DNA of 64,000 bases from Elusimicrobia bacterium GWF2_62_30 (GCA_001799995.1 MGUK01000070.1:9056-73055); one strand, 5' to 3'; counted from the first letter of the stretch, positions 10,753-55,377 are shown. Notes: generated by a model not told the origin, from the letters alone. Program-made: numbers and translations.

Positions 10753-10755
10753 AGA

Positions 10756-38265: not shown

Positions 38266-40359
38266 TTACGGGGCCTTTTGCCCCAGCAGCTTCCTGGCTT
38301 CGGCCAGTTTCGGCCAGGAAGGAGACGCGTTCTCCACGGTCCAGAGCAGGGCTTCCCCGGCCTCCTCGTTACGGCCCAGGGCCGTGAGCAGCCTGTAACT
38401 TTCAAAAGAAGCTTCGCTTCCGAGGTACGGGTTCCCGCCACCGGGTTTCCCCGGGCCCGCCGCATAAGCCGCTCCCTGGCAGGCTTGCAGCGCCCTTTCC
38501 TTCCCCCCTTCCCCTGAAGCGTCAAGACACTGTTCCATAAGCGCCTCGACGCCCTCTTTAGGCGCGGGCCTGGGAGCGCCGTCAAACGGAACGGCTTTCA
38601 AAACGCTGTGCTTGCCGGGACCAGGGGTTAGGGAAGTATTACCGGGCGGCCTGGCCTGCCCGACCGGCGGCGGAGTTTTTTTCCCGGCCAGCGGACCGGG
38701 CCCGCCGCCTGCGGGCCGGGGGCCGGCGGCCTGCGTCTCAAAACCATAAGCGAGCCCCAGGCCGCGGGCTTCCCGCACCAGCCCTGACCCGTTAAATTCC
38801 CGCTCCGCTTCCTTCTTATTTCCCTGGCCGGCCAGGATCTGGGCCCGCAGAAGCTTCAGGAAGCCGCGCGCGGGGTCCAGGGCCAGGGCCCTGTCGCACA
38901 ATATCATAGCGGCGCCGTAATTTCCCTGGCGCCGCTCGACCTCGGAGAGATGCCCCAGGAAAAGCGGGAAAAGCGCTTCGAGCTGGACGACCTTGCCGAT
39001 AGACCAGAAATTGCGGAGGATCGCTTTATCCAGGGCCTGGGCGGAAACCGCGGCGTTCTCCAGCAGCCCGGGCGCCTCCTGCCGGACATAGGCGAGTTCC
39101 GCCAGCGAAGCCTCGTTAAAGGACCTGTCCCCCGGGTTCAGCCAGGTAGCCGCGTAACTGAGCCGCTTGAGCGCGTCCTCCCGGGCCGTCTCCTTCCACG
39201 TCGGGCTGTCCGCGGCCCTGAACTTCTCGAAGCCCTTCAGCCCGCAGGCGGAGGCCGAGCGGAAGATCTCGTTCCAGACCGCACGGTTGTAGGAAGTGCG
39301 CCAATGCATGCCGTCGGTGAATTCGCGGAAGCCGGGAAGCCCGCTGTCCGCCACGCCGCGGAAAAGCTTGTCGAGGTCGGCCACGCACGCGCCTTCGGCG
39401 GCGGCCGCGCCGCGGATGCTGTCGTTGCGGGCCTCGCTGGCCCGGGCCATATCCGCGTCCACGTCCACCGCCTTCCGGTAATAGGCCGCGGCCTCGGCGG
39501 CGCGCCCCAGCTTGTCCAGGGTCCTGGCCGTATAGAAATTCAGCAGGCTGTCGTACGGCTGCGCCGCCAGCCCCGCGCGGAATTTTTCGAGGGCGGCCTT
39601 GTGGTCGTTCTCGTAAAAAAGTTTATACCCGGCGGCGAACTGCGGGTCCTCCAGTAAAAGCTGGGTCCGCGAAGGCATATCCCTGACGTTGGCCGGCAGC
39701 GTGCAGAAAACCACCGGCACGCCGGCTTTCCGGGCCGCGGCGGACATATCGGAGACCATGGCGGCATGTATCTTCAGCGAGGCTTTTTTAACGGCCTGCT
39801 GCGGCACGTCCGTGCGCGAATAATATTTCTCAAAGAGGCGGAATTTCCTGCGCTTCAGCTCGAAATCCAGGCCCGGGCAGTTCTGGTCGGGCGAGCCCTC
39901 GTGGTTCCCGCTCAGTATAACGAGCAGGTCCGGGTCATAGCGCAGGACCTCCTTGAAAATGCCGTAGATCCTTACGCTTTCGTAGCCGCCCATACCGCAG
40001 TTTATGATCTCGAAACCGGAGTTATCCACTGCGTCCGCGCCCTTCTCCCAGGGCAGGTCGGCGCAGCTGGAGAGCGCGCAGACACCCCTGTCCAGCAGGG
40101 CGGCGACGGACTCCCCCAGGACGAAAACCCTTTTTACCCCGGCGGGCTTCGGCATAGTGAACTTTTCAGGCATGGCCAGTTTTCGCTGCGCCGCGAATTC
40201 CCCTTTAGCGGTTTCGGCGAAGAACGGTTTTTTTATGTCGCCGCAATAATAGCCGGCCTGCCCGTCGTCCCTGGCGGCGCCGCTCCCCGGCGCGGCCCCG
40301 GCCCGCCGCGGCGCGGACAGCAGCAGGAACACCGGCAGGACCAAGAATAATTTGATCAT
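38266..40359 (-). CDS. Secreted SGNH-like hydrolase domain protein with TPR repeats and a Pro/Gly-rich spacer
   Basis: The ATG at 40359 (MIKLFLVLPVFLLLSA, signal peptide) overlaps the upstream stop (TGATG). KRVFVLGESVAAL (block I), IINCGMGGYES, ILSGNHEG (block III), FTDGMHW (block V). Paralogue of 26064-28004. Confidence 0.55.
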   Translation of the reverse strand: MIKLFLVLPVFLLLSAPRRAGAAPGSGAARDDGQAGYYCGDIKKPFFAETAKGEFAAQRKLAMPEKFTMPKPAGVKRVFVLGESVAALLDRGVCALSSCADLPWEKGADAVDNSGFEIINCGMGGYESVRIYGIFKEVLRYDPDLLVILSGNHEGSPDQNCPGLDFELKRRKFRLFEKYYSRTDVPQQAVKKASLKIHAAMVSDMSAAARKAGVPVVFCTLPANVRDMPSRTQLLLEDPQFAAGYKLFYENDHKAALEKFRAGLAAQPYDSLLNFYTARTLDKLGRAAEAAAYYRKAVDVDADMARASEARNDSIRGAAAAEGACVADLDKLFRGVADSGLPGFREFTDGMHWRTSYNRAVWNEIFRSASACGLKGFEKFRAADSPTWKETAREDALKRLSYAATWLNPGDRSFNEASLAELAYVRQEAPGLLENAAVSAQALDKAILRNFWSIGKVVQLEALFPLFLGHLSEVERRQGNYGAAMILCDRALALDPARGFLKLLRAQILAGQGNKKEAEREFNGSGLVREARGLGLAYGFETQAAGPRPAGGGPGPLAGKKTPPPVGQARPPGNTSLTPGPGKHSVLKAVPFDGAPRPAPKEGVEALMEQCLDASGEGGKERALQACQGAAYAAGPGKPGGGNPYLGSEASFESYRLLTALGRNEEAGEALLWTVENASPSWPKLAEARKLLGQKAP

Positions 40360-41174
40360 CAGGGAAAAGGGCAATAGACCAGCCGGTCGATACGCAGCTC
40401 CCGCAGTTCTTCGGCCGTGGAATAGAACTTTTCGGGGAACTCGAGGAAGACGGTGTTGCCCCGCACCGCGAGCTTTTCCTTTATCCAGGGATGGTCGACG
40501 GTGAAGGCGCAGGCCCGGCATTCCTGGCGGCACTCGATACCGCGCATGGAATCCTCCGGGCCGATATACGGCATCCCGACCATGCAGGTCCGCGTGGTCG
40601 TCAGGGGAAGGTAAGGGTAATAAAGAGTAAGGCTGAATTTCTCCCGGACGAACGGGCTGTCGTCCGACACGTAGTTGGCTACGGGCCTGGTGCCGGTGGA
40701 GGAGAACTCGTAGCGGCTTATCCCGCGTTTCGCCAGGAACGCCAGCGACAGGCTGTTCAGGACGGCTATGCCGTGGGCCTGCCTGACGAAGGCGTTGAGG
40801 GAGAACTGCCGTCCGGCGTTAAGCGTGAAGGGCAGCTTTTCGCGCGCGGCGAGCGCCAGCGCGCCGAAGTCGTTCACTGTTATCTCCAGCCTGTCCGCTG
40901 CCAGGCGCCCGGCGCGGTGCAGCTTCTTCAGCCCCTTGAAGACGGCCGACAGGCTTTCGACGCCCCTCTCCGTCAGGAGCGGGGTGAGCAGGCAGACTTT
41001 CTTGCCCAGCTCCTGGTACCCGGCCGCTTCGGCGCAGACGGACGCGTCCAGGAGGTTCTCGCAGAATTCCGAACCGATATAGACCCAGTCGAACCGCTTC
41101 AGCGCGTCCTTCACCCTGGTCTCCGGGAAGACGGAGCCGCCGAGCCTGATGCCGTGTTCGACGCGCCCCGTCAT
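40359..41174 (-). CDS. Divergent U32-like partner subunit (UbiV-like position)
   Basis: Only the last 271 codons of track ORF 40359..42050 are used; the ATG at 41174 overlaps the upstream stop (ATGA). FDWVYIGSEFCENLL, ITVNDFGAL, Cys group TTTRTCMVG...IECRQECRACAF. Confidence 0.5.
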   Translation of the reverse strand: MTGRVEHGIRLGGSVFPETRVKDALKRFDWVYIGSEFCENLLDASVCAEAAGYQELGKKVCLLTPLLTERGVESLSAVFKGLKKLHRAGRLAADRLEITVNDFGALALAAREKLPFTLNAGRQFSLNAFVRQAHGIAVLNSLSLAFLAKRGISRYEFSSTGTRPVANYVSDDSPFVREKFSLTLYYPYLPLTTTRTCMVGMPYIGPEDSMRGIECRQECRACAFTVDHPWIKEKLAVRGNTVFLEFPEKFYSTAEELRELRIDRLVYCPFP

Positions 41175-42124
41175 AGCTTGGGCTCCCGCCACCCGGACAT
41201 CTTTTCGATGAACCGCCGCCTGGCCTCGGCGGGCGGGAGGCAAGCGCGCAGCTCTTCGGCCAGGTCCAGCATAAGCCGCATCTCGCGCACCTTTTTGAAC
41301 TTTTGCGCGGAGGGGTCCTGGCGTATCCCGTACTTGAGGTAGCCGAGCCCGCCCGCGAAGAAGTCGAAGAAAGACGCCGCGTTGGCTATGCGCGGGGTGG
41401 TGCCGCAGCCGAACCTTTCGGAAAAGCGTTTTATGATCCCGCCCAGCCGCGGCTTCCACGCCGGGGAGAGGTTTATCACTCCCGGCGCGGGCATGCCGCA
41501 GGCCCCCATATCGGGGTGGCACATGGAGCCGCCTTTGTATTTGCGGGTGGCGCTGTAATATTCCGGCCTGTGCATATGGCAGCGGCCGTTCAGGTAGGAG
41601 CAGCCGAAGAACCGGTAGTCGAACATCTCCGTCTCTATCTTCTTCCGGCGGCAAAGGGCGAAGAGCTTCTTCGCTTCGTAAGGGGAAAGCTGGTTCGGGA
41701 GGATTATCCGCTTTATCCCAAGCCTTATGAAAAAATCCGCCGTCAGGCTGTTGAAGCAGGGCTGTAAAGAACTGAGATGAAGCCCCGCCCGGAGCCGCTT
41801 CAGCCTTGAGAAAAGCGTGAACATGGCGGGGTTCGCCACGATGAAATAATCCACCCCGAGCCCGTCGGCCTCCCCCAGGAGTTCGACCATGGAGGCCTCG
41901 CTGCGGGGATCGAAGTTCAGCGTCACGCTGTTGACCGCGAGGGAGATCTTCAGGCCCTCGGCGTGCGCGCTGCGCACGGCGTCCCCTAGCGCCTTCATGT
42001 CCGGCAGGGATTCCTGCGGCCCGAAGGAGGGCAGCTGGGCCACGCCGCAATAAAGCTCGTCCGCGCCGGCTTTAGCCAGCGCCCGGATCTCCGCGGGGTC
42101 AACGAAGCAGGAAACTATCTTCAT
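41171..42124 (-). CDS. Peptidase U32 family protein (UbiU-like)
   Basis: KAGADELYCGV..., GLKISLAVNS, GVDYFIVANPAM, LHLSSLQPCFN, GIKRIILPNQLS, and EMFDYRFFGCSYLNGRCHMH, which resembles the U32 E.F..G..C....G.C signature. Confidence 0.7.
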   Translation of the reverse strand: MKIVSCFVDPAEIRALAKAGADELYCGVAQLPSFGPQESLPDMKALGDAVRSAHAEGLKISLAVNSVTLNFDPRSEASMVELLGEADGLGVDYFIVANPAMFTLFSRLKRLRAGLHLSSLQPCFNSLTADFFIRLGIKRIILPNQLSPYEAKKLFALCRRKKIETEMFDYRFFGCSYLNGRCHMHRPEYYSATRKYKGGSMCHPDMGACGMPAPGVINLSPAWKPRLGGIIKRFSERFGCGTTPRIANAASFFDFFAGGLGYLKYGIRQDPSAQKFKKVREMRLMLDLAEELRACLPPAEARRRFIEKMSGWREPKL

Positions 42125-43044
42125 CAGAATCTTTCGGGCTCTATGGAAGCGGGGTCTTTTTTAGACGCCTTAAGTTCGCCGGACCCGTGCGCTTGCAGGT
42201 AATCGGCCCGGGCGCCGCAGCAGGCGGGCTCCAGCGCGCAGCGGGAGCAGGCCGGGCAGGCGGCTTTCGCGTCCACCCCGCCTTCCAGCACCTTGTCTCC
42301 CCGCCGCCAGCGGTGGAACTCGAAGGAAAAGCCCTCGGTGCCTTTCAGTTGGCAGAGGGGCACGTTCTGCGCCACGGTCTTGAGGCCGTTCATTTTCAGC
42401 GTAGCCAGGGCCATGTTCAGGAAAGGGGCCACCTGGGAGTAGCGCGGGATGATGGCGGGAGTTTTCAGCGCCCTGCCCTTGTTGCGGACGAAAGTGAAAT
42501 TGACCAGGGCCGCGCGGGGAAAATTCCTGGAAGCCCAGAGCGCGAATTCCGGCAGGAACCTGTAGTTAAGGCTGGAGATAATATGAAAGAGCCGGAGCTT
42601 TTCCTCCGCCCCGGCGGCCTTGAGGTTGGCCAGCCCCCTGACGGCCAGCTGGAACTTGACGCTGCGGGTGGCCCGCGCGTAAACCTCGGGCCGGTGGGAA
42701 GGGAAGTTAACGGTGAAATACTCTATTTCCTTTACCGATTTTTTACAGAAAGCGGGATCGGAAAGAGCCACCGCGTTGGTGGAAAGCATGAAATTCCTGA
42801 CCCCGGCGGCTTTAAGGGTTTTTATCCAGGTGAAAAAGTCACCACTGGCCGTGGGTTCGCCCCCGCCCTCCAGGCTTACGGCTTTGATCCCCGTTCTTTT
42901 AAGCTCCGCGGCGGTTTCGGGGAGGCCGCGCCTTTCGCCGGTGGGCGGGTTATGGCAATAGACGCAGTACAGGTTGCAGGTGCGCGCCATGCTGACGCAG
43001 GCCTGCTCGCTTATCCATTTCTTTTTCACGCCGGGATTCGCCAT
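42124..43044 (-). CDS. Radical SAM enzyme, HxsC-like paralogue family
   Basis: CNLYCVYC, LEGGGEPT, C-terminal CSRCALEPACCGARADYLQAHGSGELK. Its stop overlaps the U32 start (TGATG). Confidence 0.85.
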   Translation of the reverse strand: MANPGVKKKWISEQACVSMARTCNLYCVYCHNPPTGERRGLPETAAELKRTGIKAVSLEGGGEPTASGDFFTWIKTLKAAGVRNFMLSTNAVALSDPAFCKKSVKEIEYFTVNFPSHRPEVYARATRSVKFQLAVRGLANLKAAGAEEKLRLFHIISSLNYRFLPEFALWASRNFPRAALVNFTFVRNKGRALKTPAIIPRYSQVAPFLNMALATLKMNGLKTVAQNVPLCQLKGTEGFSFEFHRWRRGDKVLEGGVDAKAACPACSRCALEPACCGARADYLQAHGSGELKASKKDPASIEPERF

Positions 43045-43182
43045 ATGGCACGCTTTTATTATACCATTATAGCAGGAGACGGGAATTTAAGGGAAAACCC
43101 GCCCGGAACCGGGAAAAGCGCCCTCTGCCGGGCCCCGGCAGACTACCCGCGGACACCGTTCACCGTTGAGCAAACCACCCAG

Positions 43183-45714
43183 ATGGAAAGCATCGTATTC
43201 TTCGGCAAAGGCGGCATAGGCAAGAGCACCATTGCCGCCAGCGTCACGTCCCTCCTCGCGGCCGGGGGCAAGAAGGTCCTGCATATCGGCTGCGACCCCA
43301 AGATGGACTGCACCCTTTCCCTCATGGGCAGGCATATCGAGCCTTTCGCCATCCTGGGCGGCAGTTCCGGCCGCCCCGGCCTGCGCGACAGCATTTACCA
43401 GTCCCCGGTCCGCGGCGTCCACTGCATCGAGGCCGGCGGCCCGCAGCCCGGCGTAGGCTGCGGCGGCACCGCCATAGGCTCCATGCTGGACGCGATGAAG
43501 GACGAGGCCCTGCTCGAAAAAGACGGCTACGGCGCCGCCGTGTTCGACGTGCTCGGCGACGTGGTCTGCGGCGGCTTCGCGGCCCCGCTCCGGCGCGGCT
43601 TCGCGAAAAAGATGGTGATAGTCACGTCGGAAGAGATCCTTTCCCTTTACGCGGCCAACAGGCTGATAATGATGGCCGCCAACTACGCGCGCAACGGCGT
43701 CTACCTGGCCGGGCTCGCGGTGAACCTGAAGGACCAGACCCGCCTTAAGACCGTGGAGGAGTTCGCCCGCGCCGTGAACACCCGCATCCTGGGAGTGATG
43801 CTGCAGGACCCGGCCGTCTCCTCCGCCGAGCGCGAGCACAGGCCCGCGGCCATCGCCTACCCCAAGAGCGGCTTCGCGCGCCGGGTCTGGGCGCTGACGC
43901 AGGAGATACGGACGGCCAGGCCGCCGGCCACGCCGCCGCGCGCCCTGCCGGACCCGGATTTTTTCGCTTTCGCCGAAGGCAGGAGGACGGCCGTGCCCGC
44001 GGGCGCGCCCGCCGGGAAGGGCAGGAAGCAGGCCGTGAGATCCGCCAAGGCCCTTTTTTCCGCCGCCGGCTTCAAACCGGCCGGCATGGAAGACAGCCAG
44101 ATAATCTGCGACTGGAAATGCGGGCAGTCCCTTTACAAGGTAGTGATAGCGCCGGGCTCCTCGGCGAAGGGCGACATGCCCCGCATCTCGGACTGGGCCG
44201 TCTGCTTCCACCCGACGACCCCGCAGGAACCGCCCCCCCCGGGAGGCGCGCTGATGAAAGCCGCCGGGACCCTGGCCGGGCTGCGCTTCGACGAGATGCT
44301 GTCCGTTTTCACCGGGTCCAGGGATTTTTACGGGCCGCTCCTTAACCTGTCCGGCCCGGAAGACACGACCCTGGCCGCCCCCGACACGCCGCGGCGGCCG
44401 CACATGGGCTTCGGCCAGTGGCAGCGCTTCATCTTCCCCGCCGGGCTGAGCCAGGCCTACATCCCCCCCGGCTCGGTCATGGTCGAGCACGGCGATATCG
44501 AATGCCGCTTCTGCTCCTCCGAAAGCGGCATCCTGAACATGTTCAACGACAACCCCGGCATCAAGACCCCCGGCAAGGCCCTGAACATGCCGGTGCTGCC
44601 GAGGATAGACAAGCGCATCGTCAACACGGGCTTTTCCTCCGACGACGCGCTCTTCGGCGACGAGAAGAAAGTGGCGCGGTCCCTGGAAGCCGCGGCGGAT
44701 AAGGCCGGCCCCGGCGGGCTCGTGGAATTCTACGTCGGCTGCTCCCCCATCATGCTCGCCGGCGACACTTCCTCCCTGGCCGCGCGGGTCGAGCGGGAGA
44801 AGGGCGTAAAGATCATGCTGGAGCGCTTCAACAGTTTTTACGAGCACGGCAGCGCCAAGGGCGCCGTGCGCGTTTCGTACATGGCCCACAAACTTTCCAA
44901 GGCTGGCGCCGCGAAGGACCGCGACGTCTACCTGGCGGACTCTCACGACCCCACGGGCGTCCTGGACAAGCTGCTGGCCGAACACGGGATCTCCACCGTG
45001 GACCGCCGCAAGGATTTTTACCGCGAGGCGGCCTCGGCGCGCCTGCAGGTGCTCTCCCATCCCGATACCGTGCTGACCCCGGCTTTCGACAAGGCGGGCC
45101 TGAAGTGGATAATGCCGCCCCAACCCTACGGTTTCGGCGGCACGCACAAGTGGCTCGGCGCCATTGCCTCGGCGCTGGGCAGGAAAAAAGCCCCCGCGGG
45201 CCCCTCGGCGGCCCAGAAGGCGCTGGCGGCGGGGCTTTGGGCCCGCGCCAGCCGCTATACGGCGGCTTTCGTCCTGGCCACCGAGGAGATCGGCCTTCTT
45301 TCCGGGAGCACCGCGCTTAAAATGGTGCCCGTGCTGCCGGTGCTGGCCGAAGCCGGTTTCAAGGTGCGCCTGCTCCTGATGACCGCGGAAGGCCGGGACG
45401 GGAAGGCCGGCAAGCCCGGGCTCCCTGCCGAAGCGGCGGCGCAGCTCCGGGCGCTGAAAGCCTCCCTGCCGGGCACGCACCTCTCCACGGACACCTTCTC
45501 GAAGCAGGAAGAGCTGGCCAGGCTGCTGCGGGCTGACCCGCCCACGCGCCTGGTCTACTCGGACATACGCCGCGACCCGCGCGTGGTCTCCGCCGGGAAA
45601 TATCCGTTTTCGACCTCGCTCTTTGAACCGGGCTACGACGGCGCGCTGGAAACCTGGCGCAGGCTGCTGGCCCTCTGCGAATGGGATTTCAATGAAAGAT
45701 ACCTCCGGAACTGA
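43183..45714 (+). CDS. Second nitrogenase-like NifH-type/NifD-type fusion protein (843 aa)
   Basis: The ATG at 43183 (MESIVFFGKGGIGKST) lies inside track ORF 42187..45714. GCDPKMDC, CIEAGGPQPGVGCGG, FDVLGDVVCGGFA, later VEHGDIECRF and EFYVGCSPIMLAGD. 31 of the first 42 residues are identical to copy 1 (hand count). Confidence 0.8.
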   Translation: MESIVFFGKGGIGKSTIAASVTSLLAAGGKKVLHIGCDPKMDCTLSLMGRHIEPFAILGGSSGRPGLRDSIYQSPVRGVHCIEAGGPQPGVGCGGTAIGSMLDAMKDEALLEKDGYGAAVFDVLGDVVCGGFAAPLRRGFAKKMVIVTSEEILSLYAANRLIMMAANYARNGVYLAGLAVNLKDQTRLKTVEEFARAVNTRILGVMLQDPAVSSAEREHRPAAIAYPKSGFARRVWALTQEIRTARPPATPPRALPDPDFFAFAEGRRTAVPAGAPAGKGRKQAVRSAKALFSAAGFKPAGMEDSQIICDWKCGQSLYKVVIAPGSSAKGDMPRISDWAVCFHPTTPQEPPPPGGALMKAAGTLAGLRFDEMLSVFTGSRDFYGPLLNLSGPEDTTLAAPDTPRRPHMGFGQWQRFIFPAGLSQAYIPPGSVMVEHGDIECRFCSSESGILNMFNDNPGIKTPGKALNMPVLPRIDKRIVNTGFSSDDALFGDEKKVARSLEAAADKAGPGGLVEFYVGCSPIMLAGDTSSLAARVEREKGVKIMLERFNSFYEHGSAKGAVRVSYMAHKLSKAGAAKDRDVYLADSHDPTGVLDKLLAEHGISTVDRRKDFYREAASARLQVLSHPDTVLTPAFDKAGLKWIMPPQPYGFGGTHKWLGAIASALGRKKAPAGPSAAQKALAAGLWARASRYTAAFVLATEEIGLLSGSTALKMVPVLPVLAEAGFKVRLLLMTAEGRDGKAGKPGLPAEAAAQLRALKASLPGTHLSTDTFSKQEELARLLRADPPTRLVYSDIRRDPRVVSAGKYPFSTSLFEPGYDGALETWRRLLALCEWDFNERYLRN

Positions 45715-46987
45715 GTTCCCCAAGACCTTCAACCTGCCCTACCAGCTGGGAGTCTACCTGGCGGCGAACGCCGTATCGGATTCCTGCGCGTTCATGGACG
45801 GCTCGAACTGCGTGATGCCGAAGATAGATTTCATCGCGGGCAATCACGACCTGTATTCCACGCTGCTCTCCCCCGCCGGCACGCACAGGGTCATCTGCAA
45901 CATGGCGGGCCCGCTCCCGCAGAAGAGCAACCCCGAAAAAGCCCTTTCGGGCATGCTTTCCGGCGTGGCCGGCTCCGGCCTTTACTCGGTGATCATGGTG
46001 ACCGGCCTTCCCTTCCAGAAGCTGGCCGGCATGGATTACGAAGGGATAGCCGCCGGGATCAAGGGCCCGGTGCCGGTAGTGGACGTGCCCCCCTCTTCGC
46101 TCGAAGGCGACTGGCTCGACGGCTATGCCGGCGCCCTGGACGCGCTGGCCCGCGCCCTGCCGGAGCGGAAGCTGAAAAAACGCAGGCGCACGGTGGCGCT
46201 AGCCGGCTACCTGCTGGACCGCAACGAGGGCGACCATAAGGCGAACATCGCGGAGCTGCGGCGGCTGCTCGGCCTCTGCGGGCTGGAGCTGGTCTGCGTT
46301 TTCCCCTCCGGCGGCACTTTTGCGGAACTCTCGCGCGCCCTGGAGGCCGAAGTGGTGGTCTCGCTGCCGTACGGGCGCAAGGCCGCCGCCAGGCTGGCGC
46401 AGCGGTCCGGCGCCGTCCTGGTGGAGACCGGGCTGCCGCTGGGCCTCAAAGGCACCGCCGGCTGGCTTAAGGACATCTGCGCGGCCGCGGGGATAAAGGG
46501 CGGGCTCCCGCAGGCCGTAAAGGACCTTGAGCGGCAGGCCGCCGCCGACATCGCCCCCCTGCTCGACGCCATAGCCCACCTGAGCCTGGTCTACGCCGGC
46601 GATCCCTATCTCTTCTCCGGGCTTTCCGCCTTTACCGCCGAGCTCGGCATGCGGCTGCCGCTGGCCATCATAGATTCTTTTCCCAAACCCCTAGGCACCG
46701 GGAAAGTCCCGGAAAGCCTCCTTTTTTCGCCCGGCACCGGGGAGGCCGCCGCGGCGATAGCCGCTTTGTCCGGCTATTCCAGGCCGGCCCTGCTCGCCGG
46801 GAACACGTTCGCCCTCACGGAAGGTTATTCCAGGGGGATCGCCTTCCTGGAGATCGGGTTCCCGTCCTACAGCCACCATTGCCTCGGCCCGGAGCCGTAC
46901 TTCGGCTTCGCGGGAGCGGCGACCCTGGCGGGCCGCATCCTGAACTCCGTCTGCGGCCCCATGACCGAACTGGGCAAGCTGGGCTGA
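45692..46987 (+). CDS. Second nitrogenase component-1-like partner subunit
   Basis: The ATG at 45692 (MKDTSGTEFPKTFNLPYQLGVYLAANAVSDSCAFMDGSNCVMPK) overlaps the fusion gene by 23 nt. It is collinear with 35972-37249. Confidence 0.65.
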   Translation: MKDTSGTEFPKTFNLPYQLGVYLAANAVSDSCAFMDGSNCVMPKIDFIAGNHDLYSTLLSPAGTHRVICNMAGPLPQKSNPEKALSGMLSGVAGSGLYSVIMVTGLPFQKLAGMDYEGIAAGIKGPVPVVDVPPSSLEGDWLDGYAGALDALARALPERKLKKRRRTVALAGYLLDRNEGDHKANIAELRRLLGLCGLELVCVFPSGGTFAELSRALEAEVVVSLPYGRKAAARLAQRSGAVLVETGLPLGLKGTAGWLKDICAAAGIKGGLPQAVKDLERQAAADIAPLLDAIAHLSLVYAGDPYLFSGLSAFTAELGMRLPLAIIDSFPKPLGTGKVPESLLFSPGTGEAAAAIAALSGYSRPALLAGNTFALTEGYSRGIAFLEIGFPSYSHHCLGPEPYFGFAGAATLAGRILNSVCGPMTELGKLG

Positions 46988-47034
46988 CGGAAGGGCCGGC
47001 GCAAGAACCACGCCGGAGGCGGTCTGAAAAAATC

Positions 47035-48234
47035 GTGAAAACATTTTACCTGTCCCTGCTCTGGGACTGCAACGAGAACTGCGTGTTCTGCCTTAAGAAG
47101 GCCCCCCCCGAGCAGGAGAACTCCGTCCCCCCGCTGCTGGAATGCCTGGCGGCCCTGAAGCGCCAGCGCGCCAGGGGGTTCGCCTCGGTCTCCCTCGACG
47201 GCGGCGAGCCTACGCTCAGGCGTGACCTGCCGCGCATCCTGAAGTACGCCCTTTTGCTCGGCTACAAAAAAATAATGGTCATGACCAACGGCGCCGCGCT
47301 GAGCGCGGAGAACGTCCGGCGGCTGGCCGCGCCGGAAGGCGGCCGCCCCTCGCGAATTTCTTTCTGCGTCTCGCTCCACTCCCATAAACGGGCCGTCTCC
47401 GAAAAGCTGACGCGCTCCCGCGGGACCTTCCGGCGGACCGTGGACGGAATAAAGAACCTGCTGGCCGCCGGCTTCGACGTCTCGGTCTATCACGTCATAA
47501 CGCGCCAGAACTACCGCGCTCTCCCGGGCTTCGCAGATTTCGCCGCGCGGGAATTAAAGGGCGTTTCAAAGGTGGTCTTTTCGCACATTTACCCCGTGCA
47601 GCACAACCTGGCCGCCATGCGCGGCGTCTACCCCAGATTTTCAAGCGCCCTGCCTTTCCTGGCCGGGGCCATAAGCCGGCTTGAGCGCGCGGGGGTAACG
47701 CCCATGCTGGGCAATTCCGGCATGATGCCGGTCTGCCTGCTGCGGGGACAGGAAAGTTTTTTCACGCAGGCCTATCTCAAGCATGACGGGGACGCCGTCA
47801 CCTTCGACAGGAACAAGTGGGATACGCGCGACAGCCGGAAGCTGGAGCTGCTCCCCTTTTTCCGGGACGATTTCAACGAGCGCAACCGGGTCAAGGCCGC
47901 GGCCTGCGGGAAGTGCGCCCTCAGGGACGTCTGCAGCGGGATCTGGCGTTTTTACGAGGAGCTCTACGGCGCCGGAGAGCTCAAGCCCTACAAAAAAGAC
48001 GCTTTCAGCGGCATCCCGGCGGACGGCCCCCGGGCCGTGATACGGGCGGCCGGGAGCCGCGCGGCCGGCCTGCAGCCCCTCCTGGTGCGGTTGCTCGACG
48101 CGAGGCTTAAGGGGCACGGCTCGGCGCTGGTCCCGGGCCTGCACGGCAAAAGCCGGAAGACCGCGGCGGCTGAATTCGCGCGGGGCATCGGGATGAAATT
48201 ATATTTCGGAAGAACTCAGGGCCGCGGGCAATAG
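47035..48234 (+). CDS. Radical SAM enzyme, HxsC-like family, with a C-terminal extension
   Basis: CNENCVFC, LDGGEPT, CGKCALRDVCSGIWRFYEELYGAGELKP. There is no in-frame ATG after the upstream stop, so a GTG at 47035 is inferred as the start. About 80 extra C-terminal residues. Confidence 0.7.
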   Translation: MKTFYLSLLWDCNENCVFCLKKAPPEQENSVPPLLECLAALKRQRARGFASVSLDGGEPTLRRDLPRILKYALLLGYKKIMVMTNGAALSAENVRRLAAPEGGRPSRISFCVSLHSHKRAVSEKLTRSRGTFRRTVDGIKNLLAAGFDVSVYHVITRQNYRALPGFADFAARELKGVSKVVFSHIYPVQHNLAAMRGVYPRFSSALPFLAGAISRLERAGVTPMLGNSGMMPVCLLRGQESFFTQAYLKHDGDAVTFDRNKWDTRDSRKLELLPFFRDDFNERNRVKAAACGKCALRDVCSGIWRFYEELYGAGELKPYKKDAFSGIPADGPRAVIRAAGSRAAGLQPLLVRLLDARLKGHGSALVPGLHGKSRKTAAAEFARGIGMKLYFGRTQGRGQ

Positions 48235-49025
48235 ACCAGCCTGTCCACGCCCAGCTTTGCCAGTTCGCTTTCCTTCGCGTAGAACTTCTCCGGGAAATAC
48301 AGGAAAGTGGTATTCCCCTTCACTATCAGCCTCTCCCTCACCCTCGGGTGCGAAAGCTCCAGGGCGCAGGCGCCGCATTCCCTGCCGCAGGAGTCAGGGT
48401 CCGGCTCTTTGCCTGCGGCCGGCGCGGCAAGCCCCGGCAGGCAGGCCCTGGTGCTGGTCAGGTTCAGGTAAGGGTAGTACAGGGAAATAGCGAACTTGCC
48501 GCCGGCGCGGCCCAGGTCCGCCCGGAAGCGCCGCCCCGGTGAAGAAAGCTCGAAGCGGCTCACCCCGGCCTTGAGGAAGAAATCGAGAGCGGCGCGGCTC
48601 GTCAGCAGCAGCCTGCCGGCGCTGAACATGAAAAGATTATCGTAGAGCAGCCTGCCCAGGTTCAGCTTCAGGGGCAGCTTCAGCTGCGCCGCCAGCTCCA
48701 GCGCCCCGAAATCGTTCACGGTCAACTCAAGCGTTCCCTTTTGCCGGCCCGGCCGGGAGAGGCGCGAGAGGGCCTTCAGTACGGCCTTCAGCTTGGGCAG
48801 CCCCGCCGGGCCGGACATGGGCGTAAGGAAGGTGACCTTCTTCCCCCTTGAAAGGAAGAACGCGGCCTGGGCGCGGGCGGTTTCCGGGGAAGGCAGCAGG
48901 TTCGCGCAGAATTCGGCCCCCAGGTAAACCCTGTCGAACCTTGCGAGGACGGCGCGGAGCTTTTCCGGGGAGGCGGCCGTCGCGGCGGCCGCGGCTTCCA
49001 GCCGCACGGCTTTTTCAAGCTTCAT
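48216..49025 (-). CDS. Divergent U32-like partner subunit (UbiV-like position)
   Basis: FDRVYLGAEFCANLL, LTVNDFGAL, TSTRACLPG...DSCGRECGACAL. Collinear with 40359-41174. Its ATG overlaps the upstream stop (ATGA). Confidence 0.5.
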   Translation of the reverse strand: MKLEKAVRLEAAAAATAASPEKLRAVLARFDRVYLGAEFCANLLPSPETARAQAAFFLSRGKKVTFLTPMSGPAGLPKLKAVLKALSRLSRPGRQKGTLELTVNDFGALELAAQLKLPLKLNLGRLLYDNLFMFSAGRLLLTSRAALDFFLKAGVSRFELSSPGRRFRADLGRAGGKFAISLYYPYLNLTSTRACLPGLAAPAAGKEPDPDSCGRECGACALELSHPRVRERLIVKGNTTFLYFPEKFYAKESELAKLGVDRLVYCPRP

Positions 49026-49975
49026 AGGGAAAGCCTCGCCGGGTCCCAGGCGCGCATTCTAGAGACGAACGCCGCGCGGGCCTTTTCCGGGCCCAGTTCC
49101 CCCTTCAGTTCTTCCGCCAGCAGGATCATCTGCCGCATGGCCGCGACCTTGCGGACCTTGAGCGGGGAGGGGTCGGAGCGCGTCCCGTACTTGAGGAAAC
49201 CGGCCCCGGCCGCGAAGGCGTCGAAGAACGCCCCGGCCCCGGACAACCGCAGCGGCCCGCCCGAGTTCACGCGCACGGCCACGCGGGCGGTAATGGCGGA
49301 CAGCTCCCGCTTCCCGGCGGGATCGGCGTCGAGCGTTTTTACGCTGACCTCTCCCCCGCAGCCGCCTATGCGGCACAGCTCGCCCGCCTGGCTCATATCG
49401 TTGAAGGTGTGGAAGACGGGGCGGTGCAGCTTGCAGCGCCCGTTGACGTAGCCGCAGCCGAAGAACCTGTAGTCGAAGAGCTCGGTCTCGGCCCCGGCCC
49501 TGCGGCAGGCGCGGACCATCAGCGCGGTCTCCGGGCCGGTAAGCTGGACGGGGAAGATCACGCGGGAGGCCCCGAGGCGCATGAAGAAGGCCGCGGCGGC
49601 CGGGTTGAAGCAGGGCTGGACGGAACTCAGGTGGATGGCGGCTTTGAACGGGCCCGCCTTGCGCGCGAGCGCGAAGAAGGCCGGGCTCGAGACGATGAAG
49701 GAGTCCAGACCCGCGCGGTCCAGCTTCAGGAGTTCCTCCCCGAAACGCCTCCAGCCGGGAGCGTCGAAATCCAGGTAGAGGGAATTTACGGCGAGCGAGA
49801 GCTTAACGCCCAGCTCGTGCGCCCTCTTCACGGCGGGAAGCAGCCGGCGCGTCCCGAGCCTGGCGGCCAGCCCGTAGCTGGGAAAGGCGGGCACGGCGCA
49901 ATACAGCTCGCCGGCCCCGGCCGCCACGAGCGGGGCCATTTCCGCGGTATCGGTAAAACAGGAAACGACCTTCAT
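49022..49975 (-). CDS. Peptidase U32 family protein (UbiU-like)
   Basis: 317 aa, the same length as and collinear with 41171-42124. AAGAGELYCAV, GVKLSLAVNS, IHLSSVQPCFN, ELFDYRFFGCGYVNGRCKLH. Confidence 0.7.
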   Translation of the reverse strand: MKVVSCFTDTAEMAPLVAAGAGELYCAVPAFPSYGLAARLGTRRLLPAVKRAHELGVKLSLAVNSLYLDFDAPGWRRFGEELLKLDRAGLDSFIVSSPAFFALARKAGPFKAAIHLSSVQPCFNPAAAAFFMRLGASRVIFPVQLTGPETALMVRACRRAGAETELFDYRFFGCGYVNGRCKLHRPVFHTFNDMSQAGELCRIGGCGGEVSVKTLDADPAGKRELSAITARVAVRVNSGGPLRLSGAGAFFDAFAAGAGFLKYGTRSDPSPLKVRKVAAMRQMILLAEELKGELGPEKARAAFVSRMRAWDPARLSL

Positions 49976-50916
49976 CAGAAATTCTCCGGCTTTACCGAGC
50001 CCGGGGCGACAGCGGAAGCCTTCAGCTCCCCGCTGCCGTGCACGGCCAGATAATCCGGCCTGGCCCCGCAGCAGGCGGGCTCGAGGCGGCAGCGGCGGCA
50101 GGCGGGGACGGCGGCCTTGGGCGCCGCGTTAGGCGGCAGCACCGGGTCGCCCCGGCGCCAGCGGTGCAGCTCGAAGGCGAAGCCCTTGAACCTGCCAAGC
50201 ACGCAGAGCGGCGTGTTCTGTATGACCGCTTTTATCCCGCTTAGTTTCAGGTAGGCCAGCGCCGTCCGTATGTACGGCACCGCCTGCGTGTAGCTGGGCA
50301 GCAGCGGCTCGGGGCTGACCGCCGCGCGGCCGACATTGCGCATGAAGATGAAATTGACGAAGCCTATATCGGGATGATGCCGGGCCACCCAGCCCGCGAA
50401 AGCGGGCAGCCGGCGGTAATTATGCCGGAAGATTATGTGAAAAAGCCGCGTTTTCCCGGCGGCGCCCAGTTTTTCCAGGTTCTCCAGGCCTTTCAGGGCC
50501 GCCTGGAATTTCACGCTGCGGGTCGCCAGCCGGTAAGTCCTTTCGTCGCAGGCCGGCAGGTTCAGGATGAAGGAATCCACGCTCCCGGCCAGCCTGCGCG
50601 CCAGCCGCATGTCGGCCAGGGCCACGCCGTTGGTGGAAAGCATGAAGGTTTTAACGCCCCGCGCTTTCAGGAATTTTATCCAGCCCTGCAGGCCGGGGCT
50701 GATGGTAGGCTCCCCGCCCCCCTCCAGGCAGACGGCGCCGGCCCCGGTCCTGCCGAGGGCCGCGCGCACTTCAGCGCGGGTCATGGCGCGCCCCGTGGGC
50801 GGGCACTGGCAATAGACGCAGGCAAGGTTGCAGGAAGCCGCCAGGTGCACGGAAAGCTGCCTGCGGACGACCTTCTCCTCGCGCGGTGTCTTACATCTTC
50901 CTGTATGCATGTTCAT
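49975..50916 (-). CDS. Radical SAM enzyme, HxsC-like paralogue family
   Basis: CNLACVYC, LEGGGEPT, CRRCRLEPACCGARPDYLAVHGSGELK. Close paralogue of 42124-43044, with the same TGATG junction to the U32 gene. Confidence 0.85.
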   Translation of the reverse strand: MNMHTGRCKTPREEKVVRRQLSVHLAASCNLACVYCQCPPTGRAMTRAEVRAALGRTGAGAVCLEGGGEPTISPGLQGWIKFLKARGVKTFMLSTNGVALADMRLARRLAGSVDSFILNLPACDERTYRLATRSVKFQAALKGLENLEKLGAAGKTRLFHIIFRHNYRRLPAFAGWVARHHPDIGFVNFIFMRNVGRAAVSPEPLLPSYTQAVPYIRTALAYLKLSGIKAVIQNTPLCVLGRFKGFAFELHRWRRGDPVLPPNAAPKAAVPACRRCRLEPACCGARPDYLAVHGSGELKASAVAPGSVKPENF

Positions 50917-51010: not shown

Positions 51011-51679
51011 TCAGTAGACTATGACCTGGTAGTTCCCCTTTACGAACGGGGCCAGATCCACGAAACCGACCGGGTCGGGGGAAAGCGGCAGGCCCAGCGC
51101 CTTGAGCTTGGCGTGCATCCCGAGCATGGTCGCCGAGCGGGAACACAGCGTATAAGGGATCTTGGCGGCGGTAAAATCGGTCATCGTCAGCCAGAAATAT
51201 TCCTCGCGCGTGCTGGTGAAAGGGCTGCCGAAAGTAAAGCCGGCCGCCGTCTTGACCAGCCTCCCGGGGAACTTGAACTCCTTCTCGACTATCGGGGCGC
51301 CGGGGGCCTCGCCCGCGGGGCGGGGATTTTCCTGCGGCAGGATATAGGTGGTGGTGTCTCCCAGCAGCAGCGGGACCGGCTTGACCTGGGAGAGCACCGG
51401 ATTGGAAGAAACAACGACCGCGCCGGTCGGGATGTTGCGGTAGGACTCCAGGGTGGCCTTGCCCAGGAAGAAAAGCACCGCTTCCCCCTCGAACAGGGCA
51501 TGGACCTCCACGCCGGCCACCTTCAGCTGCATGATATGCTGCACGGCCATCAGGAAGCCGAACCGGTCGTCCACGCTGGAGCGTACGACGACCAGCGCCT
51601 TTTTCGGGTCCTGCTGCGCGTAAGCCTGCGCCGAGAAAAGCGTAAAGAGCGTAAACACCAAAAGTATTTTCTTCAGCAT
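51011..51679 (-). CDS. Secreted protein, weakly DsrE/DsrF-like (tentative)
   Basis: The ATG at 51679 follows AGGAGGGGGG 16 nt after the hxsA stop. MLKKILLVFTLFTLFSAQAYA is a signal peptide. ALVVVRSS...VEVHALFEGEAVLFF and YTLCSRSATMLGM recall the DsrE-fold layout. The upstream RTARTA extension in the track is the repeat read in another frame. Confidence 0.4.
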   Translation of the reverse strand: MLKKILLVFTLFTLFSAQAYAQQDPKKALVVVRSSVDDRFGFLMAVQHIMQLKVAGVEVHALFEGEAVLFFLGKATLESYRNIPTGAVVVSSNPVLSQVKPVPLLLGDTTTYILPQENPRPAGEAPGAPIVEKEFKFPGRLVKTAAGFTFGSPFTSTREEYFWLTMTDFTAAKIPYTLCSRSATMLGMHAKLKALGLPLSPDPVGFVDLAPFVKGNYQVIVY

Positions 51680-51695
51680 TGTCCCCCCTCCTGTC

Positions 51696-53680: not shown

Positions 53681-53916
53681 ATTGAATTGCACAGCGCCAT
53701 GTTCACAAATTCCGCTTCTACGCGCTCGGCCGGCACCCCGCCCTTGGGCGTTATGACCGCCGTGATATAGGCGCCGCTGCCGGAAATGGAAAAGTCCGCC
53801 AGGGCGGAATATTCACGCGCCGCCTCTTTAACGGCGGCTTCCTTGTAGATCTCCCGGTGCAGCTTAATGCTTAGCTTTTTTAAGCTTGTCTTTTTGGGGC
53901 TTTTCTTTGTCGCCAT
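53677..53916 (-). CDS. Small protein resembling the N-terminal two-thirds of HxsD (second HxsD-like module)
   Basis: 79 aa. IKLHREIYKEAAVKEAAREYSALADFSIS...ITAVITPKGGVPAERVEAEFVNMAL parallels LNLDTYSLESVYQAAYSMLDKLYFYF...LMVEIKSKENLPMPALEKLKGEFLNELL of the upstream gene. Its stop is coupled to hxsB (ATGA). Confidence 0.4.
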   Translation of the reverse strand: MATKKSPKKTSLKKLSIKLHREIYKEAAVKEAAREYSALADFSISGSGAYITAVITPKGGVPAERVEAEFVNMALCNSI

Positions 53917-55373: not shown

Positions 55374-55377
55374 AATA

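Follow-up and report, generated by a model that had tools for sequence, protein, structure and literature searches.

Two diverged nitrogenase-like cassettes in a predicted His-Xaa-Ser peptide-maturation locus of an Elusimicrobia bacterium

The genome of Elusimicrobia bacterium GWF2_62_30 (GCA_001799995.1) harbors, within a 64,000-nucleotide stretch of MGUK01000070.1 (9056-73055; hereafter the window), two cassettes that, judged from sequence, each encode a two-component nitrogenase-like (NFL) reductase, i.e., a NifH-type ATPase fused to a NifD-type subunit, together with a NifK-type partner. Both are predicted to sit inside an enlarged HxsA4-type His-Xaa-Ser peptide-maturation locus, and this NFL–His-Xaa-Ser linkage is apparently new. 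An earlier note had missed the His-Xaa-Ser system, the recognition of which changes the likely substrate. Gene context suggests, at about an even chance, that the cassettes carry out an ATP-driven reduction in the maturation of HxS-repeat peptides and not in tetrapyrrole metabolism.

The order of fusion, partner and HxsC-like radical SAM (rSAM) protein recurs ∼10 kb downstream, as the earlier note had described, with 9,690 nt from the start of fusion 1 to that of fusion 2 (Table 1). The fusion and partner genes overlap by 20 nt in cassette 1 (35972-35991) and by 23 nt in cassette 2 (45692-45714), both lengths being as previously given, and a recount on the translations again showed 31 identical residues among the first 42 of the fusions. 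A sigma-70-like promoter match was found near the start of fusion 1 (33423-33452). R2 has a GTG start with a GGAGG ribosome-binding site upstream, and the identical 399-aa gene call is present in public contigs.

Table 1. Position, strand and profile matches or relationships of the features discussed, in window coordinates.
Feature	Position	Strand	Match or relationship
TPR protein	26064-28004	-	Paralogue of 38266-40533, 43% over 674 aa
Third, more distant U32-like	28128-29006	+	Pairs with X1
X1	28969-29673	+	Pairs with U32-like 28128-29006
B12-binding rSAM	29677-31197	+	
Fusion 1 (NflH-NflD-like, 832 aa)	33493-35991	+	Pfam Fer4_NifH 217 bits + Oxidored_nitro
Partner 1 (NflK-like, component-1-like, 425 aa)	35972-37249	+	Oxidored_nitro 139 bits
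R1, HxsC-like rSAM (317 aa)	37296-38249	+	Radical_SAM; HxsC4 89, HxsC 65 bits
TPR protein between cassettes (697 aa in public call)	38266-40533	-	Homologue of 26064-28004
X2 (Cys-rich, 271 aa), triple upstream of fusion 2	40359-41174	-	
U32/UbiU-like, triple upstream of fusion 2	41171-42124	-	
rSAM, divergent triple upstream of fusion 2	42124-43044	-	Triple spans 40359-43044
Fusion 2 (NflH-NflD-like, 843 aa)	43183-45714	+	Fer4_NifH 187 bits + Oxidored_nitro
Partner 2 (NflK-like, 431 aa)	45692-46987	+	Oxidored_nitro 123 bits
R2, HxsC-like rSAM (399 aa)	47035-48234	+	HxsC4 109, HxsC 97 bits
X3 (269 aa), second triple	48216-49025	-	
U32-like, second triple	49022-49975	-	
rSAM, second triple	49975-50916	-	Triple spans 48216-50916
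HxsA4 His-Xaa-Ser repeat precursor (145 aa)	51696-52133	-	NCBIfam NF038313, 87.7 bits vs 55
HxsB rSAM/SPASM maturase	52184-53692	-	TIGR03978, 467 bits vs 370
HxsD-like (HxsD_rel)	53677-53916	-	NF038315, 59.1 bits vs 41
HxsD	53864-54376	-	TIGR03976, 59.5 bits vs 50
HxsC-like rSAM heading the hxs gene string	54441-55436	-	HxsC 67.6 bits, cut-off 268
NifS/IscS-like cysteine desulfurase	59443-60696		

Pairwise alignment showed the two copies to be clearly diverged. The fusions share 46% identity (BLASTP, E = 0), falling to 30-42% beyond the H domain, and the partners share 53% (E 8e-144), while the codon-aligned DNA is 58.8% and 61.2% identical, respectively, and the longest exact word common to both cassettes is 21 nt. 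In neighbor-joining (NJ) trees, the two fusions fell into separate clades, one of 27 members holding fusion 1 (bootstrap 94) and one of 19 members holding fusion 2 (bootstrap 83). The same held for the partners (bootstraps 100 and 98), and each copy grouped with its own orthologues from other genomes. The nearest relative of fusion 1 is P0044 (75%), and the orthologue clade of fusion 2 (P0002-P0019) shows 56-69% identity. The dN/dS values against orthologues were in the purifying range (0.14-0.25) for fusion 1, fusion 2 and partner 2, with dS made too low by saturation and partner 1 left out for want of a clean orthologue. The P-loop, the switch motifs and all the conserved cysteines (C37, C81, C93, C129, C441, and C520 in fusion-2 numbering) were found in both fusions in an alignment of 89 sequences (87 homologues and the two copies), in agreement with the earlier remark that neither copy carries disabling substitutions. 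Only four columns are fixed differently between the two fusion clades as against 174 conserved alike.

An assembly artefact (a chimeric or collapsed repeat) or the decay of one copy is extremely improbable, and no supporting point was found for either. The DNA identity of only 59-61% and the short common word speak against an artefact, as does the identical two-cassette order in independent assemblies, namely, ENA contig k141_1486644 (67.7 kb) and NCBI contig DNKL01000157.1 (82 kb); cassette 2 was found on a JGI contig too. The view that the copies are not assembly duplicates was thus upheld. Decay is contradicted by the intact frames, the retained residues and the dN/dS values. The cassettes are distinct, ancient, diverged and intact paralogues with signs of purifying selection, and look like functional ATP-dependent reductase modules.

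The third gene does not share this history. R1 and R2 are only 27-31% identical (BLASTP 27%, E 7e-19), the closest paralogue of R1 is the rSAM at 54441-55436 (35%), and the rSAM following the partner is often absent from orthologous loci. Hence, the third gene was not co-duplicated, and the notion of a duplicated three-gene cassette has to be given up; the conserved unit is the fusion with its partner. The repeated material nevertheless exceeds three genes, as TPR proteins and rSAM-U32-X triples are also paralogous. The two TPR proteins show 43-47% identity, and in L086, L104, and L106 the fusion is directly preceded by a homologue of the one between the cassettes. The rSAM, U32 and X proteins of the two triples are 53, 45, and 46% identical, and the second triple follows hxsA in the same orientation. 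A syntenic triple accompanies fusion-2 orthologues in L081, L092, L094, L096, and the P0021 contig, and was seen with the fusion-2 type only. The U32-like proteins match Pfam Peptidase_U32 only and were rejected as UbiU/UbiV equivalogs (54, 45, and 28 bits; cut-off 440).

In their predicted sequences, the fusion and partner match the family of uncharacterised nitrogenase-like proteins designated Group VI (Méheust et al., 2020). Their homologues come almost exclusively from Elusimicrobia MAGs, and relatives occur in RBG_16_66_12 (L001) and GWD2_63_28 (P0200), both Group VI-positive in the Méheust supplement. In each H domain, the P-loop and switch I/II are accompanied by the cysteine pair that, in NifH, bridges a [4Fe-4S] cluster across an H-H dimer; GKGGIGKST, C93, and C129 (equivalents of Cys97 and Cys132) show no variation among the 89 aligned fusions, which include both copies. 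The AF2 model of fusion 2 (pLDDT 76.8) gave a target-normalised TM-score of 0.9 for the H domain against NifH/MarH. The D part showed weak Pfam Oxidored_nitro matches (41-45 bits) and, in fusion 2, the best PDB sequence match was MarD (9fmg_A), with C520 aligned on the 'SCPT' cysteine, whereas the partner family profile matched best the beta-type chains AnfK/NifK/NifN. Universally conserved cysteines of the D/K parts number only three, i.e., fusion C441 (EHGDxEC), fusion C520 (GCSP), and partner C40 (DGxNC), the last being the sole invariant cysteine of partner 2. In a look for the FeMo-co ligands (NifD Cys275 and His442), the only conserved cysteine of the fusion beyond C520 was C832 (81%). 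With only three such cysteines, a P-cluster plus FeMo-co would not fit; mapped to ligands by motif similarity and one HMMER alignment, they fit a single simple [4Fe-4S]-type cluster that would have a non-Cys fourth ligand, as in DPOR. Assignment as NifHDK nitrogenase was rejected (nifH 217/183 bits, cut-off 394; nifK 34/21, cut-off 427), as were the DPOR/COR equivalogs (BchL 163 vs 345, BchX 137 vs 331, BchB 59 vs 490) and the CfbC equivalog (225 and 187 bits vs 402). No NifE/NifN equivalog was found in the 64-kb window, and NifB is absent from the listed NCBIfam matches of its rSAM genes, which number at least 15.

Downstream of cassette 2, at a distance of 3.5-6 kb, HxsB, HxsA4, HxsD, and HxsD_rel score above their curated cut-offs. 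HxsA4 contains 27 consecutive HxS units (51702-51944), and the closest homologues of HxsB are from Elusimicrobia, three of them on contigs equal in length to contigs with NFL partner matches. None of the nine HxsC-like rSAMs in the window reached the HxsC equivalog cut-off of 268, the best (61564-62493) scoring 166 bits; the HxsC4 model gave at most 129 bits against a cut-off of 500. R1 lies far below both cut-offs, and R2 is below them as well. PADLOC 2023 yielded generic rSAM similarity only.

Among 20 independent related loci, 10 encode full-length HxsB (37-68% identity) or HxsD no more than 10 kb from an NFL cassette, and an HxS-repeat ORF was seen in six. In the Myxococcales locus L003, the genes hxsD-hxsB-orf-nflH-nflD-nflK-hxsA4 are co-directional and tightly packed, and the P0021 contig carries rSAM-U32-X-fusion-partner-HxsD-x-rSAM497, all on one strand. 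HxsA4 precursors across NFL-linked loci share one common architecture. No Hxs gene was found within 10 kb in the other half of the loci (L006, L085, L087, L089, L090, L095, L109, and others). H and D are separate genes in RBG_16_66_12 and the Myxococcales, and ∼86 full-length fused homologues were found. Within ∼10 kb, 17 of the 20 loci have one cassette and three have two, because of which the DPOR/COR analogy of the earlier note is not supported in the sense of an obligatory pair. It is possible that the two cassettes serve two sequential reductions, or two substrates. L083 keeps both fusion types together, with a TP_methylase-family gene (25 bits to CysG) between its two cassettes.

The curated Hxs matches near cassette 2, the linkage in half of the related loci, and the gene order in L003 and P0021 together point to HxS-peptide maturation. 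In the proposed mechanism, MgATP would gate electron flow out of the H2 cluster, through that of D/K, and into a bound organic substrate, for which the gene neighborhood suggests the HxsA4 precursor or a heterocycle made on it by HxsB, HxsD, and HxsC-like rSAMs. In E. coli, HxsB/C/D covalently modify the HxS motif by +8 Da (+C −4H), giving an unsaturated product (PMC13128918). Cross-linked, unsaturated rings derived from His and Ser may receive reducing equivalents from the NFL enzymes, with the paralogues acting at separate steps or sites and the fusion-2 type cooperating with its syntenic rSAM/U32/X triple. Counting against this reading, the canonical HXS system works without an NFL enzyme, half of the related loci lack an Hxs gene within 10 kb, no HxsC-like rSAM reaches the HxsC cut-off, and the TP_methylase-family gene of L083 is in line with the tetrapyrrole idea.

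A role in tetrapyrrole or cofactor biosynthesis has been proposed for Group VI on the basis of phylogenetic position and of B12-binding and HemN_C domains (Méheust et al., 2020, bioRxiv 10.1101/765248); each cassette would reduce a tetrapyrrole C=C bond like DPOR, COR, and CfbCD, and two cassettes would mean two ring reductions on one macrocycle. Every characterised cluster-simple NFL enzyme does reduce tetrapyrroles (Chem Rev 2026, PMC13474568), and the B12-binding rSAMs of the window and the L083 gene agree with the proposal. However, no tetrapyrrole-pathway gene was detected among the ∼70 proteins scanned in the 64-kb window, uroporphyrinogen III capacity was present in only five genomes of Méheust et al. 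(bioRxiv 10.1101/765248), and B12 domains point to an rSAM cofactor and not to a substrate. As the scores also lie well under the DPOR, COR, and CfbC cut-offs, and the recurrent operon-level embedding in Hxs systems is left unexplained, this role is considered unlikely. A NifEN-like scaffold or maturase is far less probable still. In that case, the D/K pair and H domain would assemble or insert a metal cluster with the His/Ser-rich HxsA as metal carrier, to which the desulfurase of the window, another near the L086 cassette, the NifN and NifE chains among the PDB and NCBIfam matches, and the plausibility of HxS repeats as metal ligands could be related. Yet the conserved cysteines are only three, no NifB-like gene is seen in the window, the Fe-S demand of the many rSAM enzymes explains the desulfurase equally well, and E. 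coli HxsA is covalently modified and is not a metallochaperone (PMC13128918).

Another reading is that the paralogues do not perform two distinct steps but are interchangeable isoenzymes of one reaction, e.g., under different conditions or in different repeat contexts. One nearby cassette suffices in most related loci, and the clades differ at very few fixed columns, both of which would suit isoenzymes. The latter are nonetheless rather doubtful, since the paralogues have been separate long enough to form their own orthologue clades, at least one further genome (L083) has retained both types, the triple is confined to the fusion-2 type, and identity outside the H domain is low.

Among known systems, the Group VI Nfl proteins described from Elusimicrobia in groundwater (Méheust et al., 2020; PMC13474568) belong to the same host phylum and are similar in having a NifH-type protein equipped with ATP motifs and a pair of cluster cysteines, D/K-like proteins that have diverged strongly and keep few of the P-cluster cysteines (at most four of six), no nifB/E/N, many rSAM neighbors (some B12-binding), and relatives in the Myxococcales. 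Lineage IV Elusimicrobia carry several nifH/D/K copies per genome (Méheust et al., 2020, bioRxiv 10.1101/765248); multiple copies and rSAM neighbors of Group VI are, therefore, already published. The present proteins differ in that H and D form one polypeptide, and no mention of the H-D fusion, the His-Xaa-Ser link or the U32-like proteins was found in the Group VI accounts consulted. DPOR (BchLNB) and COR (BchXYZ) similarly combine an ATP-dependent H2 reductase with a D/K-type catalytic pair, are probably alike in relying on one [4Fe-4S] cluster held by three Cys and a fourth ligand of another kind, and represent two paralogous enzymes within one pathway; however, the context here is non-photosynthetic and without tetrapyrrole genes, and most relatives of the present cassettes have a single cassette nearby. 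CfbC of the coenzyme F430 pathway is the top NCBIfam match of the H domain, though below its cut-off, and the reported CfbC-CfbD association (PMC13474568) would be permanent here through the fusion, but CfbD forms a homodimer and lacks a K-type partner, and the present host is a bacterium and not a methanogen. Of the proteins with solved structures, the methylthio-alkane reductase MarHDK (PDB 9fmg, 9d9u) comes nearest to the H domain in fold (Foldseek E 4.7e-21, target-normalised TM-score 0.90) and to the D-like part in sequence (E 1.4e-5); Mar uses nitrogenase-type complex clusters (PMC12552129), whereas the cysteine set here is too small for these and identity is low.

The antiphage HXS system of Pseudomonadota (Nat Commun 2026, PMC13128918), which hold 99.7% of systems, consists of the four genes hxsD-hxsB-hxsC-hxsA with five repeats, and HxsA is exported following covalent maturation by HxsB/C/D (PMC13128918). 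HxsB, HxsD, and an HxS-repeat protein are likewise present here, but the precursor is of the HxsA4 type with many more repeats, the HxsC-like rSAMs fall below the cut-off, and the locus further encodes three pairs with a U32-like member as well as two NFL reductases. This Hxs setting suggests a testable substrate for the orphan Group VI enzymes.

Open reading frame listing and translation bore out the earlier note's description of two three-gene strings on the + strand, each encoding a fusion of a NifH-type and a NifD-like part (H-D fusion), a NifK-like partner and a radical SAM (rSAM) protein, R1 in cassette 1 and R2 in cassette 2. The coordinates reproduced the fusion/partner stop-start overlaps of 20 nt in cassette 1 and 23 nt in cassette 2, and a recount returned the same 31 identities over the first 42 fusion residues. 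Pairwise alignment by BLASTP showed 46% identity between the fusions, 53% between the partners and 27% between the rSAM proteins; within the fusions, identity was 63% in the H domain, 30% in the N-terminal D-like part and 42% over the remainder. Codon-aligned DNA of the two cassettes was 59-61% identical, with a longest common exact word of 21 nt. The start adopted for fusion 2 is supported by its NifH-like N-terminus (MESIVFFGKGG) and by the length of its homologues (~837-848 aa); public annotations extend it upstream across 43045-43182, to 889 or 1006 aa, and thereby overlap the divergent rSAM gene. The product of R2 is identical to that of the public gene call. Exact-protein look-ups recovered both cassettes, identically ordered, on an ENA contig (67.7 kb) and on NCBI DNKL01000157.1 (82 kb), and cassette 2 additionally on one JGI contig. 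Since two independent assemblies agree on both cassettes and their order, the assembly is neither collapsed nor chimeric here, and the copies are indeed not assembly duplicates.

Features of the cassettes and their surroundings (window positions; scores are followed by the model cut-off where one applies)
Feature	Position	Strand	Description
MotB/OmpA, FliF-C/FliG-like, MotA, then histidine kinase and response regulator	646-5421	-	Flagellar-motor-like; appear unrelated to the locus
IS200-type Y1 transposase	9175-9891	-	Y1_Tnp, 50 bits; left edge of rSAM-rich region, in the window's sole low-GC stretch (8-10 kb, GC 0.545)
DUF2284 predicted metal-binding protein	17368-17865	-	135 bits; adjoins B12-binding rSAM
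U32/UbiU-like + Cys-rich X pair	28128-29673		X ~234-271 aa over the three pairs
Cassette 1 fusion	33493-35991	+	832 aa; Fer4_NifH 217 bits then Oxidored_nitro (Pfam)
Cassette 1 partner	35972-37249	+	425 aa; Oxidored_nitro (Pfam)
Cassette 1 rSAM R1	37296-38249	+	317 aa; Radical_SAM (Pfam)
U32/UbiU-like + Cys-rich X pair	40359-42124		
Cassette 2 fusion	43183-45714	+	843 aa; Fer4_NifH 187 bits then Oxidored_nitro (Pfam)
Cassette 2 partner	45692-46987	+	431 aa; Oxidored_nitro (Pfam)
Cassette 2 rSAM R2	start 47035	+	399 aa; GTG behind GGAGG; Radical_SAM (Pfam)
U32/UbiU-like + Cys-rich X pair	48216-49975		
Signal-like N-terminus, no family match	51011-51682	-	223 aa; directly downstream of hxsA4
HxsA4-type precursor	51696-52133	-	NF038313 87.7 (55)
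HxsB	52184-53692	-	TIGR03978 467 (370)
HxsD-like	53677-53916	-	NF038315 59.1 (41)
HxsD	53864-54376	-	TIGR03976 59.5 (50)
HxsC-like rSAM	54441-55436	-	HxsC model 67.6 (268), below cut-off
NifS/IscS-like cysteine desulfurase	59443-60696	-	Aminotran_5, 315 bits; amid rSAM genes

The proposal that the whole three-gene cassette is duplicated held for the fusion and the partner but not for the rSAM gene in third place. R1 is more similar to the rSAM proteins encoded at 54441-55436 (35%) and at 42124-43044 and 49975-50916 (31-32%) than to R2, and orthologous loci have a hydrolase, unrelated genes or nothing comparable downstream of the partner. The conserved unit is a two-gene core of fusion and partner inside larger paralogous blocks, and its stop/start overlap recurs in the related loci L085, L086, L088, L089, and L090, at 23-32 nt. 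Paralogy in the window extends beyond three genes. The two cassettes have TPR proteins upstream of them that share 43-47% identity, and the divergent triple rSAM/U32-like/X2 (40359-43044), X2 being one of the Cys-rich proteins, shows 53/45/46% identity to the paralogous triple at 48216-50916, all of these values being close to the 46-53% found for fusions and partners. The third U32-like + X pair, upstream of cassette 1, is more distant. X2 has a weak U32 match (E 9e-4), and two of the three pairs come after an HxsC-like rSAM. The pairs are reminiscent of UbiU-UbiV, the Fe-S heterodimer of O2-independent hydroxylases. Around cassette 1 there are six TPR proteins (20071-28004 and 38266-40533), three of which (22116-26191) have clear GDSL/SGNH-hydrolase domains; 38266-40533 has a single, sub-threshold one. 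In L086, L104, and L106, too, a TPR homologue immediately precedes the fusion.

Both copies retain every invariant residue of a 24-sequence fusion alignment, every cysteine conserved over 89 aligned fusions (87 homologues and the two window copies) and every invariant column of a 30-sequence partner alignment, in agreement with the earlier reading that neither carries disabling substitutions. A search of 5.8 billion proteins identified ~86 full-length H-D fusions, the named ones nearly all from Elusimicrobia MAGs. Relatives of fusion 2 were 56-69% identical to it and ~44-48% identical to fusion 1, for which one relative at 75% was found. Neighbor-joining analysis (100 bootstraps) placed fusion 2 in a 19-member clade without fusion 1 (bootstrap 83) and fusion 1 in a 27-member clade without fusion 2 (bootstrap 94), and the partners likewise fell in separate nearest clades (bootstraps 98 and 100). 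As the copies belong to separate orthologue clades, for fusions and partners alike, the split predates the diversification of the sampled lineages. Selection was judged from orthologue comparisons only, which gave dN/dS of 0.23 for fusion 1, 0.25 for fusion 2 and 0.14-0.16 for partner 2, all upper bounds because dS is underestimated. The copy-versus-copy values (0.37-0.57) were discarded as not meaningful, since third-position identity of 47-51% at ~85% GC3 indicates saturated synonymous sites. Only four sites showed clade-specific fixed differences between the fusion clades, a low number that reflects the heterogeneity of the fusion-1 super-clade and is uninformative on functional divergence.

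The H domain scored far below the cut-offs of its best models, CfbC (225 bits, cut-off 402) and NifH (217 bits, cut-off 394), and the partners reached 21-59 bits against BchB, BchN, and NifK models with cut-offs > 320. Group VI nitrogenase paralogues, defined in groundwater Elusimicrobia of lineages IV and V, keep the NifH motifs, have very divergent D/K proteins with some P-cluster cysteines missing, are without M- and P-cluster assembly genes and have up to 13 rSAM genes in the neighborhood (Méheust et al., 2020, bioRxiv 10.1101/765248); none has been characterized so far (Chem Rev 2026, PMC13474568). The window cassettes fit this description closely in host phylum, NifH motifs, divergent D/K proteins and rSAM neighbors. 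Relatives of the window proteins were found in RBG_16_66_12 (locus L001) and GWD2_63_28, both Group VI-positive in the supplement of that study; the GWD2_63_28 relative is the partner homologue P0200, which has a contig family in common with the fusion P0039. Membership of the window proteins in Group VI is hence strongly indicated.

No mention of an H-D fusion was found in the Group VI texts consulted. RBG_16_66_12 encodes H (171-1007) and D (986-2794) in two genes that overlap; in the Myxococcales locus L003 (10001-12926), the H gene (10001-10816) has its TGA stop at 10816, with D immediately behind it; and locus L010 (10001-13173) has the unfused order D-K-H. In length, the fusion's D-like part (residues ~285-843, fusion 2 numbering) matches free D-like proteins, so that the fusion is an end-to-end join via a short linker (residues 269-284), of low confidence in the AF2 model. 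Queried with the D-like part, a full HMMER scan over 1.84 billion representatives gave 474 matches at E <= 1e-3, of which 189 reached <= 1e-10 and 21 reached <= 1e-30, indicating a small family with both fused (~800-880 aa) and free (~560-630 aa) forms. In the AF2 model (mean pLDDT 76.8), the H domain superposed on NifH and MarH with target-normalized TM-scores of ~0.9; Foldseek with the full-length model returned NifH-domain matches only and was uninformative on the D-like fold. By sequence, the best solved relative of the D-like part is MarD, in alignment with which C520 pairs with the "SCPT" cysteine, the NifD Cys154-type position. Among the established nitrogenase motifs, C441 (EHGDxEC) resembles NifD HGPVGC(88) and partner C40 (DGxNC) resembles NifK HGSQGC(95), a putative mapping from motif similarity. 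In DPOR, the cluster ligands are three Cys and one Asp; by analogy, the three conserved cysteines are consistent with a single [4Fe-4S] cluster whose fourth ligand is not Cys. Since tethering of H to D would leave a single H2 dimer per (HD-K)2 assembly, this dimer is predicted to serve two catalytic halves by alternating docking.

Downstream of cassette 2, on the - strand, lie genes of a His-Xaa-Ser peptide-maturation (Hxs) system, including an HxsA4-type precursor with 27 His-Xaa-Ser units in succession. Past hxsA4, the gene string runs on with a probable secreted protein and the second rSAM/U32/X triple; a 292-aa ORF call at the former is probably spurious because, in a different frame, its upstream part overlaps the repeats. 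At least 15 rSAM genes lie in ~51 kb (12762-63550), nine of them HxsC-like, none of which reached the HxsC cut-off (best 61564-62493, 166 bits versus 268). Three rSAM proteins (15048-17378, 17888-19237, 29677-31197) are B12-binding or B12-rSAM-like. A cysteine desulfurase of the class seen in the window also occurs in L086 (16576-17826), beside an rSAM trio near the nitrogenase-like (NFL) cassette. Defense assignment of the window by PADLOC gave generic rSAM/viperin similarity only, and Rfam and tRNA scans gave no matches.

Related loci came from exact-protein look-ups, from a scan of GTDB and from a metagenome-contig scan with a family-specific C-terminal alignment, the last yielding 20 loci; a genome-contig profile scan based on the full-length fusion alignment, which selected generic NifH peptides, gave for the most part ordinary nifH loci and at least about nine useful ones. 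Full-length HxsB (37-68% identical) or HxsD was encoded <= 10 kb from an NFL cassette in 10 of the 20 independent loci of at least 11 kb, with no Hxs gene within that distance in the other half; an HxS-repeat ORF was visible in six. By a rough estimate, a random 20-kb stretch takes in a genome's one Hxs system with a probability well under 1%, so that the observed frequency is far above chance. The precursors have a common architecture of basic N-terminus, FLxxEEGK, hydrophobic helix and an (HxS)n stretch closed by GSY or GSW, and the closest HxsB homologues (65-84%) are all from Elusimicrobia, three of them on contigs of the same length as contigs with NFL partner matches. In L003, hxsD, hxsB (477 bits), a small ORF, nflH, nflD, nflK, and hxsA4 (93.5 bits) are co-directional; compared with the canonical order hxsD-hxsB-hxsC-hxsA (PMC13128918), the NFL genes stand where hxsC stands. 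The contig of the homologous protein P0021 has rSAM-U32-X-fusion-partner-HxsD-x-rSAM (497 aa) on one strand. The Hxs-NFL linkage is therefore not peculiar to this genome and occurs in two phyla. No paper joining NifH with His-Xaa-Ser, or nitrogenase-like with RiPP, was found, which does not prove absence.

The earlier note had likened the two cassettes to the DPOR/COR pair. Two cassettes occur in three of 20 independent loci (each at least 11 kb), namely, the window, L083, with convergent orthologues of fusion 1 (74%) and fusion 2 (61%), and L085/L098, with a head-to-tail HD-K-HD-K tandem. The other 17 hold a single cassette within ~10 kb, a count of locus neighborhoods rather than whole genomes. 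The view of two distinct, old and functional-looking enzymes stands, but the DPOR/COR analogy is not backed by this distribution, because most loci hold a single cassette. A tetrapyrrole substrate is a rival explanation for which the gene context of Group VI, otherwise of little help, has offered a "tantalizing" association with tetrapyrrole genes (Chem Rev 2026, PMC13474568). L083 carries a TP_methylase-family gene (11069-11899, -) between its convergent cassettes; with only 25 bits to CysG, it is the sole tetrapyrrole-type hint in any locus, and no tetrapyrrole genes were found in the 64-kb window.

The gene neighborhood suggests instead that these orphan nitrogenase-like enzymes act in repeat-peptide maturation. 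In E. coli, HxsB, HxsC, and HxsD process HxsA, adding +8 Da (+C, -4H) in an SHRSS motif, and the matured product is exported and stops phage DNA entry; 99.7% of these four-gene systems are in Pseudomonadota (PMC13128918). The product of this chemistry is unsaturated and cross-linked, a type of substrate for which an ATP-driven low-potential reductase would be useful. In HxsA4 maturation, ATP-driven NFL reductases would hydrogenate radical-SAM-built unsaturated His/Ser cross-links in the precursors, cassettes 1 and 2 would each carry out a reduction step of their own, and enzymes of the fusion-2 type would work together with a UbiU/UbiV-like U32 pair. That all three parts hold together, with Group VI enzymes as HxsA4-maturation reductases, is proposed tentatively, as possible rather than probable.

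The duplication itself adds little, because several copies were already published for Group VI in 2020 (bioRxiv 10.1101/765248); the gain lies in the repeated association, at operon level, of NFL cassettes with HxsA4-type systems in two phyla. This embedding gives a plasmid-encodable candidate substrate, so that co-expression followed by mass spectrometry could test the function of the orphan branch. The natural H-D fusion is, in addition, a ready case for docking studies of a permanently tethered Fe-protein domain. If the proposal is true, Group VI enzymes would be the first of the nitrogenase family with a ribosomal peptide as substrate; confirmation would bring peptide chemistry into the range of nitrogenase-type ATP-coupled reduction and would mean that Hxs systems, known as a four-gene antiphage module, have far more elaborate relatives.
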